From: an uncultured Candidatus Saccharibacteria bacterium
GTDB taxonomy: Bacteria; Patescibacteriota; Minisyncoccia; Phycocordibacterales; VMEP01
Direction of reading: 5' to 3'
Length of the DNA: 64,000 bases
Assembly (NCBI GenBank): GCA_964579635.1
Contig: CAZOFV010000004.1
Location: 817-64,816, forward strand
The translations under genes were made by a program, and so were the position numbers. Under the pieces are notes generated by a model. That model ran no database searches. It was not told the origin of the DNA and worked only from the letters and a program-made list of their open reading frames with translations. This document shows positions 21,598 through 28,042 of this stretch, piece after piece; position 1 is the stretch's first letter, and each line of letters opens with the position of its first letter.

Positions 21598-23880
21598 CTA
21601 AAACTCCTCAACTCGAACCCTACAATCCACCCTACATCTCGCAGGATTCTCACCTTTAGAAGGTTGACAGATTCCATTACCACAAGAGGTGTTTGAACTA
21701 CAGGAAGCATTGATTCCTCCGTATTCGCCAGCACAAGTCCATGTCCATGAAGAAGGAGTTCCTCCTTCTGGTAAAAAGTTGGTATTTGATGGTAATACAG
21801 TAGGTCCTGGTAATCCAACTGTATTACAGAGATTTGATGTTGGTTTCTTTTGAGATGGTATCCCGTTGGCAGAACCGCAGACTCCATCTACTGGGTTATT
21901 AACATTTACTGTTATCGTGCGAGAAGGACAGTTGGTTGACCATAAGCCCATGTTGTCTTGAGCTCTAAAGTAGACAGTGTAGGTTCCAGCAGAAAAAGAT
22001 CTAACGAAACTTACCAAAGAACTAAGTAATGTTCCGGTAGAGCAGTTTCCACTTCTCCATTCATAACCAACAACTGTGCCATCTGCGTCTGTTGCTGATC
22101 CTGTAAACTGCTGGGTTTGATTTTCAAATATGGTGATATCGATTGCTGGGCTGACAATTGATGCGGTTGGTGGTGTAGCTGGGATACAAGAGCTGGTACT
22201 ACTTTGCCAGATGAATAGTGGTGCACAGGTATTACAGCTTACTGGGTTGTTTGCTCCGTTATTACATATTCCATTGGTACAGCCGCCATTACTACATGTA
22301 GCACAAGTGCTTCCATTCCAACCAAGTGGGGTAGAACAAGTGTTGCATGTTGGGTAGTTGTTTGCGCCATTTGAACAAGTTGGAGTAATTGTGAAAGAAC
22401 TGAATGGAGACCAACCGCTGTATAGTCCATTGGAGCTATTGTAAGCATATCCAGAAAGAGTGTTGCTGTTTATCGGTGAAGTGAAGTTTGTGTTGAAAGT
22501 TACGACGTAAGAGACAGTTCTAGTGTTTCCTGATACTGAAGTACTGCAAGACACGAGGTTGATATATTCTGGACCATAACCATTGTAGATTGTTGCAGAG
22601 CCACCACCAGAACAAGCTATTGGTGGTATTTTGTATAATCCTCCGAAGAAGGTAAATCCAATTGATGACCATCCTAGATATCCACGATAGTAACCAGCGT
22701 TCACTCCTTGGTAATTTACTAAAGCGAGTTCGTCGGTAATGAAGGAACCGCCGCCGTAGTTAGAAGCTGTTGAGGTAATGGTGTATTGATTGGTTGCGTT
22801 AGTTAGCACTGTACCACTACTGATAGTGACGTTTGTCATAGTTGGAAGAGGCGGAGATACTGTGAAGTTGGTTGTTGACCAACCAGAACCAGCCCAGACA
22901 GTGTTGTAGCAATATGCAGAAATAGTATGAGCTCCTGGACTAGTCATGGCTCCCGCATAATATGTTCCGGAGGTTGTGTATCCGGCGACTAAATATGTAG
23001 ACCAATCAAGTAGTAAATAACAGTAGTAGCCGTTTGTGGAGGAAAGAGTAAATCCTGGGTTGGCACCATAAGGTACTGGATTTTGCGAAACGGAAGCAGA
23101 TGCGGTGGGAGGATCATAGGTCCAGTAAACAACAACAACGCCCTGCGCGCCATCACCAGCGTAAGTGGGGGTCCCCCAGTCGCAGGTGGCGTTGGAGCCA
23201 AACACTTGGCTGGCAAACACTCCTCCTCCACCACCACCACCTCCTCCACCAGATTGTGGATAGACTAAAGGTGACCCACCACTCCATGCGCCACACGTGC
23301 ACGACGTCTCATTGCAATCATAAAGAAGGGTACAGGTTCCGGCGGTGGCCGCTGAGCCCCCAGCACCTCCAGCACCTCCAGAGCCACTAGCGCCACCGGC
23401 GCCACCAGTAGTTGCCCATCTACTTGGTGGCCAAGAACCATACGAACCGTAACTAGCTGTCCCGTAACCTCCATACCCCGGGGAACCGCCCGTCTGACCA
23501 CCGCCACCGCCATACGCAACCACTGGCCCAATAAGAGAATATCCACCATCACCACCAGGACTTGATGCACCAGACTCACAGTGGGGAGCACCGCCATGAA
23601 CACCGCCCGGGCCAACAGTAACCCAATAAGACTGACCACCTGTTACCGAAAAAGACCCGACACTATAACCTCCTCCTCCGCCACCAGCACCAGCACCTTC
23701 ATTGGTACCACCAGCACCAGCTCCACCACCACCAACTACTACTGCGGTTAGAGAAGACACTCCTGTTGGCACGGTAAAGGTCCCACTGCTAGTAAAAGTA
23801 TATGATTCGGCAAGTGAAATGCTCGGCATCACTGTGAGCAAAACTACTGCAACAATAACCGTAGAGATTATTTTTTTCAT
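21598..23880 (-). CDS. large secreted cell-surface protein with a polyglycine-rich N-domain, Cys-rich repeats, a PKD-like domain and a conserved Cys-containing C-terminal module
   Basis: Signal peptide MKKIISTVIVAVVLLTVMPSISLA. Gly-rich segment at aa about 40-250, including a G10 run. TCxxC-type Cys-rich repeats at aa about 500-555. PKD-like motif SATDADGTVVGYEWR. The C-terminal 200 aa are paralogous to the C-terminus of the 1122-aa neighbour. Confidence 0.8.
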   Translation of the reverse strand: MKKIISTVIVAVVLLTVMPSISLAESYTFTSSGTFTVPTGVSSLTAVVVGGGGAGAGGTNEGAGAGGGGGGYSVGSFSVTGGQSYWVTVGPGGVHGGAPHCESGASSPGGDGGYSLIGPVVAYGGGGGQTGGSPGYGGYGTASYGSYGSWPPSRWATTGGAGGASGSGGAGGAGGSAATAGTCTLLYDCNETSCTCGAWSGGSPLVYPQSGGGGGGGGGGVFASQVFGSNATCDWGTPTYAGDGAQGVVVVYWTYDPPTASASVSQNPVPYGANPGFTLSSTNGYYCYLLLDWSTYLVAGYTTSGTYYAGAMTSPGAHTISAYCYNTVWAGSGWSTTNFTVSPPLPTMTNVTISSGTVLTNATNQYTITSTASNYGGGSFITDELALVNYQGVNAGYYRGYLGWSSIGFTFFGGLYKIPPIACSGGGSATIYNGYGPEYINLVSCSTSVSGNTRTVSYVVTFNTNFTSPINSNTLSGYAYNSSNGLYSGWSPFSSFTITPTCSNGANNYPTCNTCSTPLGWNGSTCATCSNGGCTNGICNNGANNPVSCNTCAPLFIWQSSTSSCIPATPPTASIVSPAIDITIFENQTQQFTGSATDADGTVVGYEWRSGNCSTGTLLSSLVSFVRSFSAGTYTVYFRAQDNMGLWSTNCPSRTITVNVNNPVDGVCGSANGIPSQKKPTSNLCNTVGLPGPTVLPSNTNFLPEGGTPSSWTWTCAGEYGGINASCSSNTSCGNGICQPSKGENPARCRVDCRVRVEEF
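23221..23250 (-). repeat. in-frame (GGN)10 triplet repeat encoding a Gly10 run
   Basis: Plus strand reads tcctcctccaccaccaccacctcctccacc, which encodes GGGGGGGGGG (aa 211-220 of the 760-aa protein). Confidence 0.8.
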
Positions 23881-23943: not shown

Positions 23944-24483
23944 TTATCTTACTTGCACTTCCCCACCAACAAGGGATTGAATATTTATTCTCGTAGCCAC
24001 GAACGTTTTTAAGCTTGATATATCAACAGAAGAAAAAGCAACAAGAATATCTCCAACTTTAATATCTTCAAGTGCAACCCCAACTCGAGTAAAAGGCTCT
24101 GGTGGTATTGTAAGCGTAGTTGTATTTTGTTTTTGCTTTTCGGCAAAGTCCGCTAAATCCTTTTTTATTGACTCAGAATCTTTTTGAATAAGATTTTCAA
24201 TAACAGTGGCCTTATCAACAGTCACGACGATGGATTCTGTTGGATCTCCCGAGATAACCTTGCTTGGCATTTTCCTTGCGTCTTTAAGAAAGATCTCTTT
24301 ATCAGATATTTTTTCAACAGTACCAACAGCCATGTGTTGTTCTAATTGTTCCAATCCTGTGTTTTGTGTCTTGGGAGCAGTCTTTATATTTGAGCCACCC
24401 GTATAGACATAAAAAACCGTAGCGAGAATAGCAATTACACCAATAACAGCAGTGGCACTAATTATTTTTTTATATTCAGCCAT
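23944..24483 (-). CDS. hypothetical N-terminally anchored membrane protein between the two surface-protein genes
   Basis: 179 aa with a single N-terminal TM (IISATAVIGVIAILATVFYVY). No recognised domain. Confidence 0.55.
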   Translation of the reverse strand: MAEYKKIISATAVIGVIAILATVFYVYTGGSNIKTAPKTQNTGLEQLEQHMAVGTVEKISDKEIFLKDARKMPSKVISGDPTESIVVTVDKATVIENLIQKDSESIKKDLADFAEKQKQNTTTLTIPPEPFTRVGVALEDIKVGDILVAFSSVDISSLKTFVATRINIQSLVGGEVQVR

Positions 24484-24673: not shown

Positions 24674-27600
24674 CTAAAACTCAAAAAACTTAACCTTGCA
24701 ATCTGCCCTACAAGTAGATGGGTTTTCACCTTTAGAAGCCTGACACTTATCGTCACCGCACGATGTTCCTAACTGACGGCATACACCCTCTGAATCACAT
24801 ACTGTACCAACTGAACTACACGAAGCATTTGAGCCATTATATTCACCAGCACAGGTCCATGTCCAAGATAGCGCAGGGTTGTTTTCAGGAAGAATATTGA
24901 TATCTGTGGGTAGAACAGTTGGACTTGGTAAGCCTACTGTGTTACAGAGATTAGAGGTTGGTTTCTTTTGAGTTGGAACGCCGTTAGCAGAGCCACAAAC
25001 TCCTGGTATTGGATCTGGTGTAGTAACGGTCAATCGACGATATCGGCATGGTGATGACCATGCCCCGGAATCATCTTGGCCCCTGAAAAAAATCCAGTAT
25101 GTTCCGGGAACAAATGAACGAACAAAACTTGTTAAAGAACTAATGAGTGTGCCGGAGGTGCAGTTATCGAGTCTCCATTCATAAGCCACTATAGTACCGT
25201 CAATATCGGCGTCTGTGGCCGCACCAGAAAATTGCTGTGACTGGGAGCTGTTTATTGTGATGTCTGTAGCGGGGCTAATGATTGTCGCTGTTGGTAATTT
25301 GTTTTTATACGCATAACAGGTAGGATTTGCTCCATTTACCCCACGACACTCCCACTGATAACGATCAAGAAGGTTCCAAACATAACCCGGAGTACCTGTA
25401 TTGCAAAGCCCAGAAGTTGGAGCAGTTGTTAACCTTGTAGTCCCATTAGCTGGGCCACAAGAACCGTTAACTATGGATGTTACTATGTTTATAGTCTTAA
25501 AAACGTTTGCAGATTGATTATTATTAGAATCTTGTGTTCTTACATAAAAAACTTTCGTTCCAGTTGTGCCCCATGTACGACTAATTGTTTGAGGGGTCCC
25601 AGACGGAACATATCCAACCGCAGGAGCCCATTCGTCAATAATAGTGTCGAAGTTCCAGTCAAAGCCATACCTAACATTATCACCATCAATATCTGTTGCG
25701 GTAGCTGTAAAACTTACGGGAGTATTCACAAGACTAGGATCCTGATAAACAAGAGTTGGTGTTGATGGTGGATTACTTGGAGGAGCTGCAGTAAATGAGA
25801 AAGAAAGACTCATGGCTTGAACATCGAAATTAAGACCACCGGAACGCCCATATTGACCTGTTTGTCTACTGTCATAACTAATAAATTGTCCCGCTCGAAG
25901 AAAACCACTTGTAGCTGGGTATGAAACATACATATTAATTGGTTGTCCAGAAGAAGCTGTAACTAAACAATCAGAATAAAAAGGACTATAGCTCACAGTT
26001 GGAGCACACCACGTAGGATCACCAGGGTACAGCGAACAGAAAAAGCTGTTATATGGAGCAACTGTCCTCACACCACCTAAAGTAGCTCCACAGCTAAGAC
26101 CGCTTCCAGAGACAGAAAATGTTGGAGGTATGGTGGCCATATCCCCTTGATAAATAATGTAATACCAACCACCAGAAACATAATTAATGTTGGCACACTC
26201 ATTATATGTTGTACAAGATTTTGCAGAGGTGTCCCATCGTCCATACGGAGAGTCATATTCACCACCTGTGCCAACCCAAGAACTTGCGCCACTATTTGGA
26301 TTCCAGGTCACCCTAACAGTAGCGCCGGTTGGAATTGAGGATCCATCAAGTATCTCTGCCCCAAAAAGAGTTACAGTGGCATTGTATATCACCGTCGCTG
26401 TTATTCCCGCGACCCCGTAACCAGTCGGATTAGAAGACCCCTCACTAAAACCAAGTATCGGCAAGCTTTGTGTTGTCCCAACGCTCTTTGCTTCTGCTAA
26501 TAGTGGCACCGTAAAAGAAGACCCGAGAAAAATAAGTATTAACACAAGAGAAATTGGCAATTTTTTCCTACCACGAAAAACTCTCCACAAAATATAAGCG
26601 ATAGACAAAAGAACCAAACCACCTAAAACAATAGCGCCCGTATTCGTTTTTTTAGGACAGATGTCAGGGTTAATATTCCGACAATCATAAACCTCTTTTA
26701 CTTCCTCAACTACTTCTCCTTTGTGTTTAAGTGTGGCAGTTAAGGAAAATGTTGTGTAATTTTTTTTCGGAGTAAACAGATCTTTTACCCCCATCATTGT
26801 ACTTGTAATATCTCCAGCATACTCATAGGAATGGATAAATCTCCCATTTTCATCCCTTAGTGTTAAAGTCAAGGTGTTATCTTTAACAAAGCCGTCACTA
26901 ACCGCGTGAACGCAAGAAAAAAGCGTATTTTCCTTATTTTTTTCAAGTGGATAGCTCATAATACTTGGAAAATTTATTCTTGTTTCCTCAATGCCATCAC
27001 GAACAAAACGAATGTTAAGAATTGATTTACTAGAAAGATCTCTGGTCTCTACTACAAGATAAGAAACAATCGCCCCGGTTGGTAAGGCGGTATATGAAAT
27101 TTCTTTGGTCTCTCTTGGCTTTAATTGCACAGATTCTGTTTTTATATCCTTAAGATTTTCTTCACGAAGACCATCCCAGTTATATAATTTCCAAACGACA
27201 GGGACTGTCACTGATTCGTTTTTCGGGTTTACAATCTTAACAACAACGCTCACTGGATCATCTTTTGAAAAATGAAGGGGGAAGGCGGCAAAACGATGTG
27301 GTTGCTTGTTCAAAGTAACCGTACTCTTGTCAAAAGCGACAACGCCAATCTTGCTATCATTAACAACAGAAAAATAAACCTGATTACCAACTACGTCATC
27401 AGTAAAAGAAAGTCCTAAAAGGTTATAGCGCTTAGCGGTCTGAAAAAAGAAGGTTGCAATATAATCTCCAGCCGGAGCGTTATCTGGAACTTTCCATAAA
27501 AATGACGTCTTCTTACTTCCTTTTGCTGGGAGTGTAAAGGTTTCGTTGAGTGGAAACTGGTCAACTAGCTCAAACCCATTTTCTTGGTCAAAATTTTCTC

Positions 27601-28042
27601 CCGCTTGTTGTCTAAATATTTTTACGTAAACTTGACCATCAACTATAGGATAAGGGTTGGCATTTTTTATTTCACCAGGAAACCCGACTGTCGCACCGGG
27701 AACAGTTTGGGAAAGCGTAGTCGGAAGATCAACTTGAACAGAACCAAAATGATAATAATCAAAACAATCAACTGTTCCTAGAGGAGAAGCTCCAGATGTA
27801 TCGACACCAGAGGGATTGCCTAAAAGAATAAAAGAAGTCATTTTCTCTTTTTCTTCATTCGTCCAAGTCTTTTGGTCTTTCTTAAAGATAGCCTGTATTT
27901 CGACGGGGGCTTCTTTAAGATTAACTGTTGGCGCACCAGGCGACGAAGGAGTTGTCACTTGGGCTTGCGACGATGGTGCTACAATAAAAAACAAAAAAAA
28001 GAAAATAAAAAACAGAGATAAATTAAAAAATTTAAAGTTCAT
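24674..28042 (-). CDS. giant secreted cell-surface protein (1122 aa) with an internal TM hairpin, two PKD-like repeats and two copies of the conserved Cys-containing module
   Basis: Signal peptide MNFKFFNLSLFFIFFFLFFIVAPSSQA. Internal hydrophobic pair TGAIVLGGLVLLSIAYILW-RVFRGRKK-LPISLVLILIFLGSSFTVPLLAEA. PKD-like motifs TATDIDGDNVRYGFDW and AATDADIDGTIVAYEWR. Two G(S/V)CG(P/S)ANG…LCNT…W.C modules. The C-terminal roughly 200 aa are about 70% identical to the 760-aa protein. Confidence 0.8.
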   Translation of the reverse strand: MNFKFFNLSLFFIFFFLFFIVAPSSQAQVTTPSSPGAPTVNLKEAPVEIQAIFKKDQKTWTNEEKEKMTSFILLGNPSGVDTSGASPLGTVDCFDYYHFGSVQVDLPTTLSQTVPGATVGFPGEIKNANPYPIVDGQVYVKIFRQQAGENFDQENGFELVDQFPLNETFTLPAKGSKKTSFLWKVPDNAPAGDYIATFFFQTAKRYNLLGLSFTDDVVGNQVYFSVVNDSKIGVVAFDKSTVTLNKQPHRFAAFPLHFSKDDPVSVVVKIVNPKNESVTVPVVWKLYNWDGLREENLKDIKTESVQLKPRETKEISYTALPTGAIVSYLVVETRDLSSKSILNIRFVRDGIEETRINFPSIMSYPLEKNKENTLFSCVHAVSDGFVKDNTLTLTLRDENGRFIHSYEYAGDITSTMMGVKDLFTPKKNYTTFSLTATLKHKGEVVEEVKEVYDCRNINPDICPKKTNTGAIVLGGLVLLSIAYILWRVFRGRKKLPISLVLILIFLGSSFTVPLLAEAKSVGTTQSLPILGFSEGSSNPTGYGVAGITATVIYNATVTLFGAEILDGSSIPTGATVRVTWNPNSGASSWVGTGGEYDSPYGRWDTSAKSCTTYNECANINYVSGGWYYIIYQGDMATIPPTFSVSGSGLSCGATLGGVRTVAPYNSFFCSLYPGDPTWCAPTVSYSPFYSDCLVTASSGQPINMYVSYPATSGFLRAGQFISYDSRQTGQYGRSGGLNFDVQAMSLSFSFTAAPPSNPPSTPTLVYQDPSLVNTPVSFTATATDIDGDNVRYGFDWNFDTIIDEWAPAVGYVPSGTPQTISRTWGTTGTKVFYVRTQDSNNNQSANVFKTINIVTSIVNGSCGPANGTTRLTTAPTSGLCNTGTPGYVWNLLDRYQWECRGVNGANPTCYAYKNKLPTATIISPATDITINSSQSQQFSGAATDADIDGTIVAYEWRLDNCTSGTLISSLTSFVRSFVPGTYWIFFRGQDDSGAWSSPCRYRRLTVTTPDPIPGVCGSANGVPTQKKPTSNLCNTVGLPSPTVLPTDINILPENNPALSWTWTCAGEYNGSNASCSSVGTVCDSEGVCRQLGTSCGDDKCQASKGENPSTCRADCKVKFFEF

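Follow-up and report, generated by a model that had tools for sequence, protein, structure and literature searches.

What is the short, cysteine-containing module that recurs beside PKD-like repeats in two large predicted proteins of an uncultured Candidatus Saccharibacteria bacterium, and does it belong to any family described up to now? The question arises from a stretch of 64,000 nucleotides of contig CAZOFV010000004.1 (assembly GCA_964579635.1), in the following called the window, where two open reading frames (ORFs) on the reverse strand encode protein A (24674..28042, 1122 amino acids (aa)) and protein B (21598..23880, 760 aa). Judging from profile searches, the module is a member of a large domain family, which is lacking from Pfam and NCBIfam and has no solved relative in the PDB. 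We give a probability of roughly 0.6 to the reading that it is a disulfide-stabilised extracytoplasmic spacer, a bead in the stalk of secreted or surface proteins. The family is new but of a well-known kind, that of the small extracellular repeat modules, and no established concept is changed by it.

The three copies and their family

The original prediction had the peptides and the coordinates of the repeats right (24809-25759, corresponding to aa 762-1078 of A, and 21676-22185, corresponding to aa 566-735 of B), and the two modules it assigned to A and the one to B, each following a PKD-like repeat, were all found as described. Its total of four copies has to be corrected: a scan of the whole window in six frames, with a hidden Markov model (HMM) and a regular expression, yielded exactly three. 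Copy 1 of A (aa 860-911, 25310..25465, reverse strand as all features of A and B given below) is 52 aa long and has nearly the canonical 51-aa form, and copy 2 of A (aa 1014-1077, 24812..25003) as well as the copy of B (aa 666-729, 21694..21885) are 64 aa long and share a variant form in which about 12 aa are inserted between the second Cys and W-x-W-x-C. Common to the three are the motifs G-x-C-G-x-A-N-G, P-T-S-x-L-C-N-T-G and W-x-C-x-G together with the last Cys, and the hallmarks of the family (C-G, P, L-C, G, W-x-C, G and the last C) are present in 3/3 copies. The canonical length and the segment G-x-G-P-W are not kept, which marks the window copies as divergent or variant members: in copy 1 of A, NLLDRYQWEC stands where the family has GxGPWxWxC, and in copy 2 of A and the copy of B a segment of about 25 aa (TVGLPSPTVLPTDINILPENNPALS) is found instead of xxGTASxVxGxGP. 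A profile made independently from 63 copies, all of other organisms and none of the window, matched only these three among 1011 six-frame segments, namely copy 1 of A over its full length (30.6 bits, independent E-value (i-E) 1.6e-8) and the other two in two halves each (i-E 3e-5 to 1e-3 per half). By this measure the three window copies are true family members, far beyond chance.

The consensus of the family reads G-x-C-G-[SAT]-[AS]-N-G-x6-P-x3-L-C-x2-G-x-A-S-x-V-x-G-x-G-P-W-x-W-x-C-x-G-x-N-G-G-x4-C-S-A. Across 1256 full-length copies, conservation is approximately 100% for C3, C20, W36, C38 and C49, 98% for G4 and G23, 95% for P15, 91% for L19 and 90% for G40 and G44; position 34 is occupied by W, F or Y, and the remaining positions are mostly variable and rich in S/T/A/G/N. 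The four Cys are complete in 1588/1590 copies (1278/1280 and 310/310). That Cys, Gly, Pro, Leu and Trp are kept while most else varies points to core and turn residues rather than to a shared ligand site. The conserved Cys/Trp pattern, on which the original prediction was built, also holds in orthologues: a metagenomic orthologue of A (L141), 88% identical over 1102 aa, contains both modules with all Cys and Trp in place, and in L140 an orthologue of the C-terminus of B adjoins alaS, as it does in the window. Copy 2 of A and the copy of B differ by 0.19 nonsynonymous (dN) and 1.24 synonymous substitutions per site (dS), giving a dN/dS of ~0.15, which identifies them as ancient paralogues maintained by purifying selection; with a dS of ~1.2 or higher, neither a recent duplication nor gene conversion can account for the likeness of A and B.

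The size of the family became apparent in an exhaustive hmmsearch with a 33-copy profile against 1.84 billion cluster representatives, 5170 of which were matched at E<=1e-3, 2774 at 1e-10 and 702 at 1e-30. Copies were counted in 163 proteins, comprising the best 150 representatives and the first 13 homologues (P0001-P0013, found with the C-terminal 382 aa of A): together they contain 1427 module copies, with a median of 8 per protein and a maximum of 31 in this stricter recount, and HMMER reported up to 44 matched stretches in a single protein. In some carriers the modules account for up to 80-87% of the length. The commonest start-to-start spacing is 56-60 aa, which leaves linkers of 5-9 aa for a 51-aa domain. 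Tandem arrays of the ~51-aa module occur in six of the 13 homologues (P0005, P0006, P0007, P0011, P0012 and P0013). Word-indexed homologue searches with short module alignments, on the other hand, returned nothing or fragments only.

A degenerate DNA pattern for GPWxWxCxGxxGG, run on species-representative genomes, matched at least 120 stretches, and in 107 of the 120 listed the HMM recognised real modules. Assigned by record title, these 107 loci among the matches listed belong to Patescibacteria (23), Alphaproteobacteria (19), Desulfuromonadales/Geobacteraceae (13), other 'delta' lineages (10), Betaproteobacteria (10), Bdellovibrionales (8), Gammaproteobacteria (7), Acidobacteriota (5), Micavibrio (2), DPANN archaea (2) and other groups (8). 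Carriers available in culture are, among others, Minisyncoccus archaeiphilus PMX.108, Thiobaca trueperi DSM 13587, Acidovorax sp. SDU_ACID1 and Rudaea sp. In viruses the module is rare: 11 of the 12 pattern-matched IMG/VR contigs (L121-L132) carry it, the proteins measuring 209-1097 aa and having one or two copies each; three tandem modules had no match by tblastn among GenBank phages and PLSDB plasmids; and a PHROGs scan of nine module-bearing IMG/VR proteins gave no informative match. A phage origin of the module was rejected.

None of these proteins led to a named family. The module of A and B has no match at E<=1 in Pfam-A (2025 copy) or NCBIfam (June 2026), which agrees with the original claim that the family is unnamed, and the same holds for proteins with 18-29 module copies. 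Likewise, neither library matched the repeat of the six tandem-array homologues or that of nine top database matches with up to 29 copies (HMMER; 24 in the stricter recount). PDB sequences contained nothing credible when searched with the 33-copy profile, Foldseek found no match to the module fold in the PDB, and no description of the module was found in a full-text literature search. RefSeq names the carriers by their other domains only, for example as 'PKD domain-containing protein' (WP_412732245.1), 'DUF1566 domain-containing protein' (WP_165903440.1) or 'choice-of-anchor D domain-containing protein' (WP_137913381.1). The original prediction had named two observations that would speak against it, a match to a named family and a loss of the Cys/Trp pattern in orthologues; neither was made.

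Predicted fold, export and role of the module

Structure prediction had been proposed as a further check, and AlphaFold2 (AF2), given the 33-copy alignment, returned for copy 1 of A a model with a predicted local distance difference test (pLDDT) of 91 and a predicted template modelling score (pTM) of 0.70. Its short strands span residues 2-3, 21-23, 36-41 and 49-51, which sets every Cys of the module in or beside a strand, and the module is confidently predicted to fold autonomously into a small beta domain. A second model, of aa 750-1122 of A, was poor over module 1 (pLDDT 29-44), where the alignment is one sequence deep, and is therefore uninformative on contacts between the module and the PKD-like domains. 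The pairing of the cysteines was approached by mean-field direct-coupling analysis (DCA) of 1466 distinct copies, in which only variable columns were considered. The strongest couplings include 2-21 and 5-18, which fit an antiparallel register with i+j=23 and so place the Cys at position 3 (Cys3) opposite that at position 20 (Cys20), and 35-50, which lies within the hairpin carrying Cys38 and Cys49; W34 is coupled to positions 14, 18 and 30, which suggests that it is buried. From these data we infer, with moderate confidence, two disulfides joining the first to the second and the third to the fourth Cys of the module (Cys1-Cys2/Cys3-Cys4, counted in order).

The extracellular location suggested for the module is supported by signal peptides on A and B, by the N-termini of the carriers and by their extracytoplasmic partner domains. 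Among 147 top representatives, 134 are Met-initiated, and 118 of these have a hydrophobic stretch in their first 45 residues, compared to only 3 with such a stretch in an internal control window. In 52 sampled carriers the Pfam partners were OmpA (9), RCC1 (3), DUF5648 (2) and pilin N_methyl (2), with PKD, Gly_rich_2, Laminin_G_3, Cohesin and GH26 among those seen in a single case and Glucodextran_B as a further occasional partner. Elsewhere the module stands with Lcl_C and Flg_new_2 (the Thiobaca and Acidovorax proteins), with HYDIN-type Ig domains (the Rudaea protein) or with a beta-propeller and CARDB (a Yonathbacteria protein). A type IV pilin N_methyl protein with three modules, encoded by a Candidatus Paceibacterota metagenome-assembled genome (MAG; L013:3463-5505, reverse strand), indicates that pilin-like proteins can be decorated as well, and the variety of partners as a whole marks the module as a promiscuous extracytoplasmic domain.

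Protein WP_412732245.1 of the cultured archaeal parasite Minisyncoccus archaeiphilus (L059:590-6037, reverse strand) is 1816 aa long and has 22 module copies: about ten of them are near-identical 60-aa units, which speaks for recent tandem amplification, and PKD/Big_9 domains with one further module between them follow. It is possibly identical to PMX.108_01191, a PKD protein with high expression (PMC10936435). A further ORF of M. archaeiphilus PMX.108 was noted (L095:3745-7998, reverse strand, within 1368001-1376000 of NZ_AP038758.1), where the reading frame for RNA polymerase beta' (Rpb1 domains 1-5) lacks a stop codon at its end and continues through an E/K-rich stretch of ~250 aa, a transmembrane (TM) helix, two four-Cys modules and an FGE-sulfatase-like domain; it is either a genuine fusion or the result of a stop loss or frameshift in the assembly.

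The pairing of module and PKD domain, put forward in the original prediction, is true of the window (3/3 copies) but fails as a trait of the family and was rejected as a rule, since only one of the 52 sampled carriers contains PKD. It is frequent in Patescibacteria (the window, P0001-P0004, P0008, P0010, L057 and L059), where it characterises one subgroup. The label 'PKD-like' itself is a fair one, as judged from near-matches in Pfam, from AF2 and Foldseek for the second such domain of A and from identity to P0009 for the first. PKD-like 2 of A (aa 917-1011, 25010..25294), which has a Cys pair of its own (C961/C999), stays below the Pfam gathering thresholds (PKD_4 17.1 vs 27, PKD 16.4 vs 23.5, K319L-like_PKD 22.1 vs 27) and has a sub-threshold match to Big_7 too; two homologues pass the PKD_4 threshold (P0001 with 28.7, P0008 with 39.7). 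Its AF2 model (pLDDT 81-96) retrieved 4xed (TMt 0.83, 28% identity), 9kvu (0.82) and 4aqo (TMt 0.77) in Foldseek. PKD-like 1 of A (aa ~768-856, TATDIDGDNVRYGFDW, 25475..25741) has no Pfam match of its own, is 38-39% identical to two PKD domains of P0009, which themselves match PF00801/PF18911, and was modelled by AF2 as a beta sandwich with moderate pLDDT (60-75). The PKD-like domain of B (aa 571-663, 21892..22170) is homologous to PKD-like 2 of A and matches Big_7 (E 1.5e-4) and K319L-like_PKD (E 0.01).

Conservation confined to core and turns, a variable surface, short linkers, amplified copies and partners typical of surface proteins together lead to the reading of the module as a bead, and from them we infer its spacer function and its display at the surface. 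Two Trp, one Leu, one Val and one Pro would form the core, which the disulfides Cys1-Cys2 and Cys3-Cys4 would lock, so that a compact bead, resisting protease and force, could space and project other domains. Most carriers have the module in long tandem arrays, and in the window single copies alternate with PKD-like Ig domains; in A and B, the variant module is part of a conserved C-terminal cassette attached to unrelated N-terminal parts. Several points weigh against this reading. The modules of the window are not in tandem with each other, and a structural role leaves unexplained both the single copies beside PKD and the strong conservation of the insertion variant within the cassette. The DCA couplings are moderate (z ~3-4), with the invariant Cys columns being uninformative, many hosts are anaerobes (candidate phyla radiation (CPR), Geobacter), in which extracytoplasmic disulfide formation is less certain, and neither PDB sequences nor Foldseek yielded a solved structure of any member of the family. 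A binding or anchoring role of the module is possible.

Binding, sorting and metal ligation as alternatives

Should the module be an adhesive or lectin-like unit, recognising for example glycans of a host envelope, its arrays would provide multivalent binding. We regard this as rather unlikely. The two conserved aromatics, W34 and W36, could be taken for a binding platform, and the variable surface positions could tune specificity; Laminin_G_3, GH26 and Glucodextran_B as occasional partners would fit, as would the presence of the module in attaching episymbionts and predators (Patescibacteria including the parasite Minisyncoccus archaeiphilus, DPANN, Bdellovibrionales, Micavibrio). Both aromatics, however, share one face of a single strand and are coupled to positions 14, 18 and 30; joined by the invariant Cys, Leu and Pro, these two Trp more likely make up the core of a 51-aa domain. 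Outside the core and turn set nothing is conserved, hence no common binding site, the near-identical repeats of the Minisyncoccus protein are typical of length variation in stalks, and free-living Proteobacteria and Acidobacteriota commonly have the module too.

A second alternative shifts the emphasis from the module to the C-terminal cassette surrounding it, and the layout of the two proteins has to be considered here. Protein A begins with a signal peptide (aa 1-27, MNFKFFNLSLFFIFFFLFFIVAPSSQA, 27962..28042), identified from its sequence and an N-terminal hydropathy peak, which is followed by an N-terminal ectodomain, two hydrophobic helices, a middle region, PKD-like 1, module 1, PKD-like 2, the variant module 2 and a Cys-rich tail with an EF end (CGDDKCQASKGENPSTCRADCKVKFFEF-COOH, 24677..24811). 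The helices (aa 469-489 and 495-518 with RGRKK between them, 26489..26638) emerged from a hydropathy scan and are probably a TM hairpin, which would put both large halves of A outside the cell; the second one ends in AEA, resembling a signal-peptidase site, and the pair could be either a hairpin or the relic of two fused secreted proteins. Protein B consists of a signal peptide, a glycine-rich domain (PF21722 Gly_rich_2, aa 30-253, 23122..23793, E 1.1e-9, 39.1 bits where the cut-off is 24.3), a middle region, a Cys-rich stretch (aa ~502-565, CSNGANNYPTCNTCSTPLGWNGSTCATCSNGGCTNGICNNGANNPVSCNTC, 22186..22377), the PKD-like domain, the variant module and a Cys-rich tail again ending in EF (CGNGICQPSKGENPARCRVDCRVRVEEF-COOH, 21601..21693). 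The Cys-rich stretch contains 10 cysteines, is shared with P0003, differs from the four-Cys module and has no Pfam match. Besides the signal peptide, no hydrophobic segment was found in B by the hydropathy scan.

A and B resemble each other only in their last ~206 aa, which are 61% identical. This cassette is composed of the PKD-like domain that contains a Cys pair of its own, followed by the variant module and then by the tail CG[DN]xxCQxSKGE[NS]PxxC[RK]xDC closing with x-EF-COOH, and it is also found in P0001-P0004 and P0008 behind differing N-terminal parts (GW-type repeats, Gly_rich_2 or CARDB). Its identity is 60-75% among A, B, P0001-P0004, P0008 and L140, in spite of unrelated N-terminal parts; the Cys-rich tail of A, common to B and to P0001-P0004, P0008, L140 and L141, has no match in Pfam or NCBIfam. 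The EF end is further shared by P0010 and by the protein of L057:5339-7219, both Patescibacteria proteins without the Cys-rich tail. Among 1437 long ORFs of the fetched loci, an EF end is seen in ten, of which seven encode module-bearing proteins of Patescibacteria type, namely six cassette proteins (duplicate loci included) and the L057 protein.

Between A and B lies a gene for a 179-aa single-pass membrane protein (23944..24483, reverse strand), which has no Pfam match and is 27% identical (E 2e-11) to the product of the gene directly downstream of P0001 in L133, L137 and L139; the P0001 gene is the same in all three loci, and these may represent a single genomic locus in several copies. The remaining genes around A and B are housekeeping genes (alaS, mnmA, yceG, rpoA, rpsD), together with MgtC and an EamA transporter. 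The G+C content of the window is ~37% and reaches up to 0.476 between 22001 and 24000, compared to a background of ~0.37; as this peak overlaps the glycine-rich Gly_rich_2 domain of B with its GGN codons, it is probably due to composition rather than to foreign DNA. The nearest homologues of the C-terminal region of A are found in Candidatus Paceibacterota MAGs, by which the window would probably be assigned to a Patescibacteria (CPR) genome and there to Paceibacterota; an exact look-up found no identical copy of protein A on record.

From these alignments, the cassette suggests a shared role in retention or sorting. That it is as a whole a common surface-retention or sorting device of secreted Paceibacterota proteins, possibly acting with the adjacent membrane protein, is nevertheless doubtful. 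The high identity of the cassette behind unrelated N-terminal parts would be expected of such a device; B and P0001-P0004 have no membrane anchor besides the signal peptide, x-EF-COOH closes all cassette proteins as well as P0010 and the L057 protein, and a homologue of the 179-aa protein follows a cassette gene both in the window and in the perhaps single locus represented by L133, L137 and L139. On the other side, the cassette was met in about ten proteins only, an enzyme that would sort them was not identified and no C-terminal sorting model of NCBIfam recognises the cassette; no 179-aa neighbour stands beside the orthologue of A in L141, and the EF end could simply be inherited within one small family of paralogues in a single lineage. 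Only as a speculative extension would we combine the two ideas, the cassette then being an unrecognised sorting signal of Paceibacterota, perhaps read via the membrane protein, and the module a new disulfide-rich fold by which episymbionts and predators contact their hosts.

Least likely among the remaining alternatives, and in our view quite improbable, is the binding of a metal (a Zn or Fe site) by the four invariant Cys in place of disulfides. Four invariant Cys per ~51 aa and the anoxic habitats of many hosts would suit such a site, but with the spacing C-x16-C-x17-C-x10-C there are none of the CxxC knuckles that Cys4 metal sites usually have, no His or Asp is conserved as a partner, the carriers are exported, and DCA sets Cys3 across from Cys20 just as in a cross-strand disulfide. 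Chance or low-complexity resemblance among Cys/Gly/Ser-rich stretches, to which one might be led by the S/T/G/A/N-rich composition of the module, is practically ruled out by thousands of database matches with E down to 0, the invariant Cys/Trp register, the dN/dS of ~0.15, the confident AF2 model and an independent profile that picks just three copies out of 1011 segments.

Comparison with known systems

Large surface proteins of CPR bacteria, DPANN archaea and predatory bacteria are likely tools of host attachment and mostly carry the annotation 'hypothetical'. Defining the family to which the module belongs would improve the annotation of thousands of proteins, the 1816-aa protein of Minisyncoccus archaeiphilus being one example, and would draw attention to a C-terminal cassette that may serve in surface display in Paceibacterota; the module itself is a small, tractable target for structure determination.

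As a conserved C-terminal unit on unrelated secreted proteins of one lineage, the cassette is comparable to the C-terminal domains (CTD) of the type IX secretion system (T9SS), to dockerins and to the PEP-CTERM/PEF-CTERM and LPXTG signals. It differs from signals of the PEP-CTERM/PEF-CTERM type in that A and B end at EF, with no TM helix or basic tail after the motif; no sorting-signal model of NCBIfam matches A or B, and no sortase or exosortase-like gene was seen nearby. Its tail resembles the cysteine-rich repeat of Myxococcus, TIGR02232, and similar motifs of the type CGDG-x-C...GE-x-C-x-DC, with which it shares the look of a short Cys knot and the GE...C.DC signature. Unlike these, the tail occurs just once, at the very C-terminal end with x-x-x-EF after it, and it has no NCBIfam match at E<=1.

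For the module, the EGF-like, thrombospondin type 1 (TSP1), Sushi/CCP and fibronectin type I (FN1) domains of eukaryotes offer an analogy: they too are mostly beta domains of 40-60 aa with invariant Cys and Trp, arranged like beads on a string in secreted proteins. The likeness is one of principle only, since order and spacing of Cys and Trp differ in the module, its distribution is prokaryotic, and EGF, TSP1, Sushi, FN1, hevein and similar domains gave no match to it in Pfam or Foldseek.

The stalks of fibrillar adhesins, built from PKD, Big, Rib, SHIRT or cadherin-like domains, are a further comparison. The module is half the size of Ig-like stalk domains, is braced by four invariant Cys where those domains have a beta-sandwich core or isopeptide bonds, and has neither a Pfam model nor a similarity to a solved fold in Foldseek. 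In fibrillar adhesins, stalks are accompanied by an adhesive domain and a cell-surface anchor; A has a probable TM hairpin and B has none, and no adhesive domain is recognised in either, only Gly_rich_2 in B. Stalk domains have been defined operationally as tandem domains of one family with fewer than 35 residues between them (Monzon et al. 2021, PMC8286594); the family with its spacing of 56-60 aa falls within this definition, and the window falls outside, the copies of A being ~100 aa apart with PKD between them, so that modules alternate with PKD instead of standing in tandem. In other respects the correspondence is close: in both cases small, autonomous extracytoplasmic domains are set head-to-tail with short linkers, are joined to Ig-like/PKD domains, anchors and diverse functional domains, and expand in copy number through near-identical repeats.

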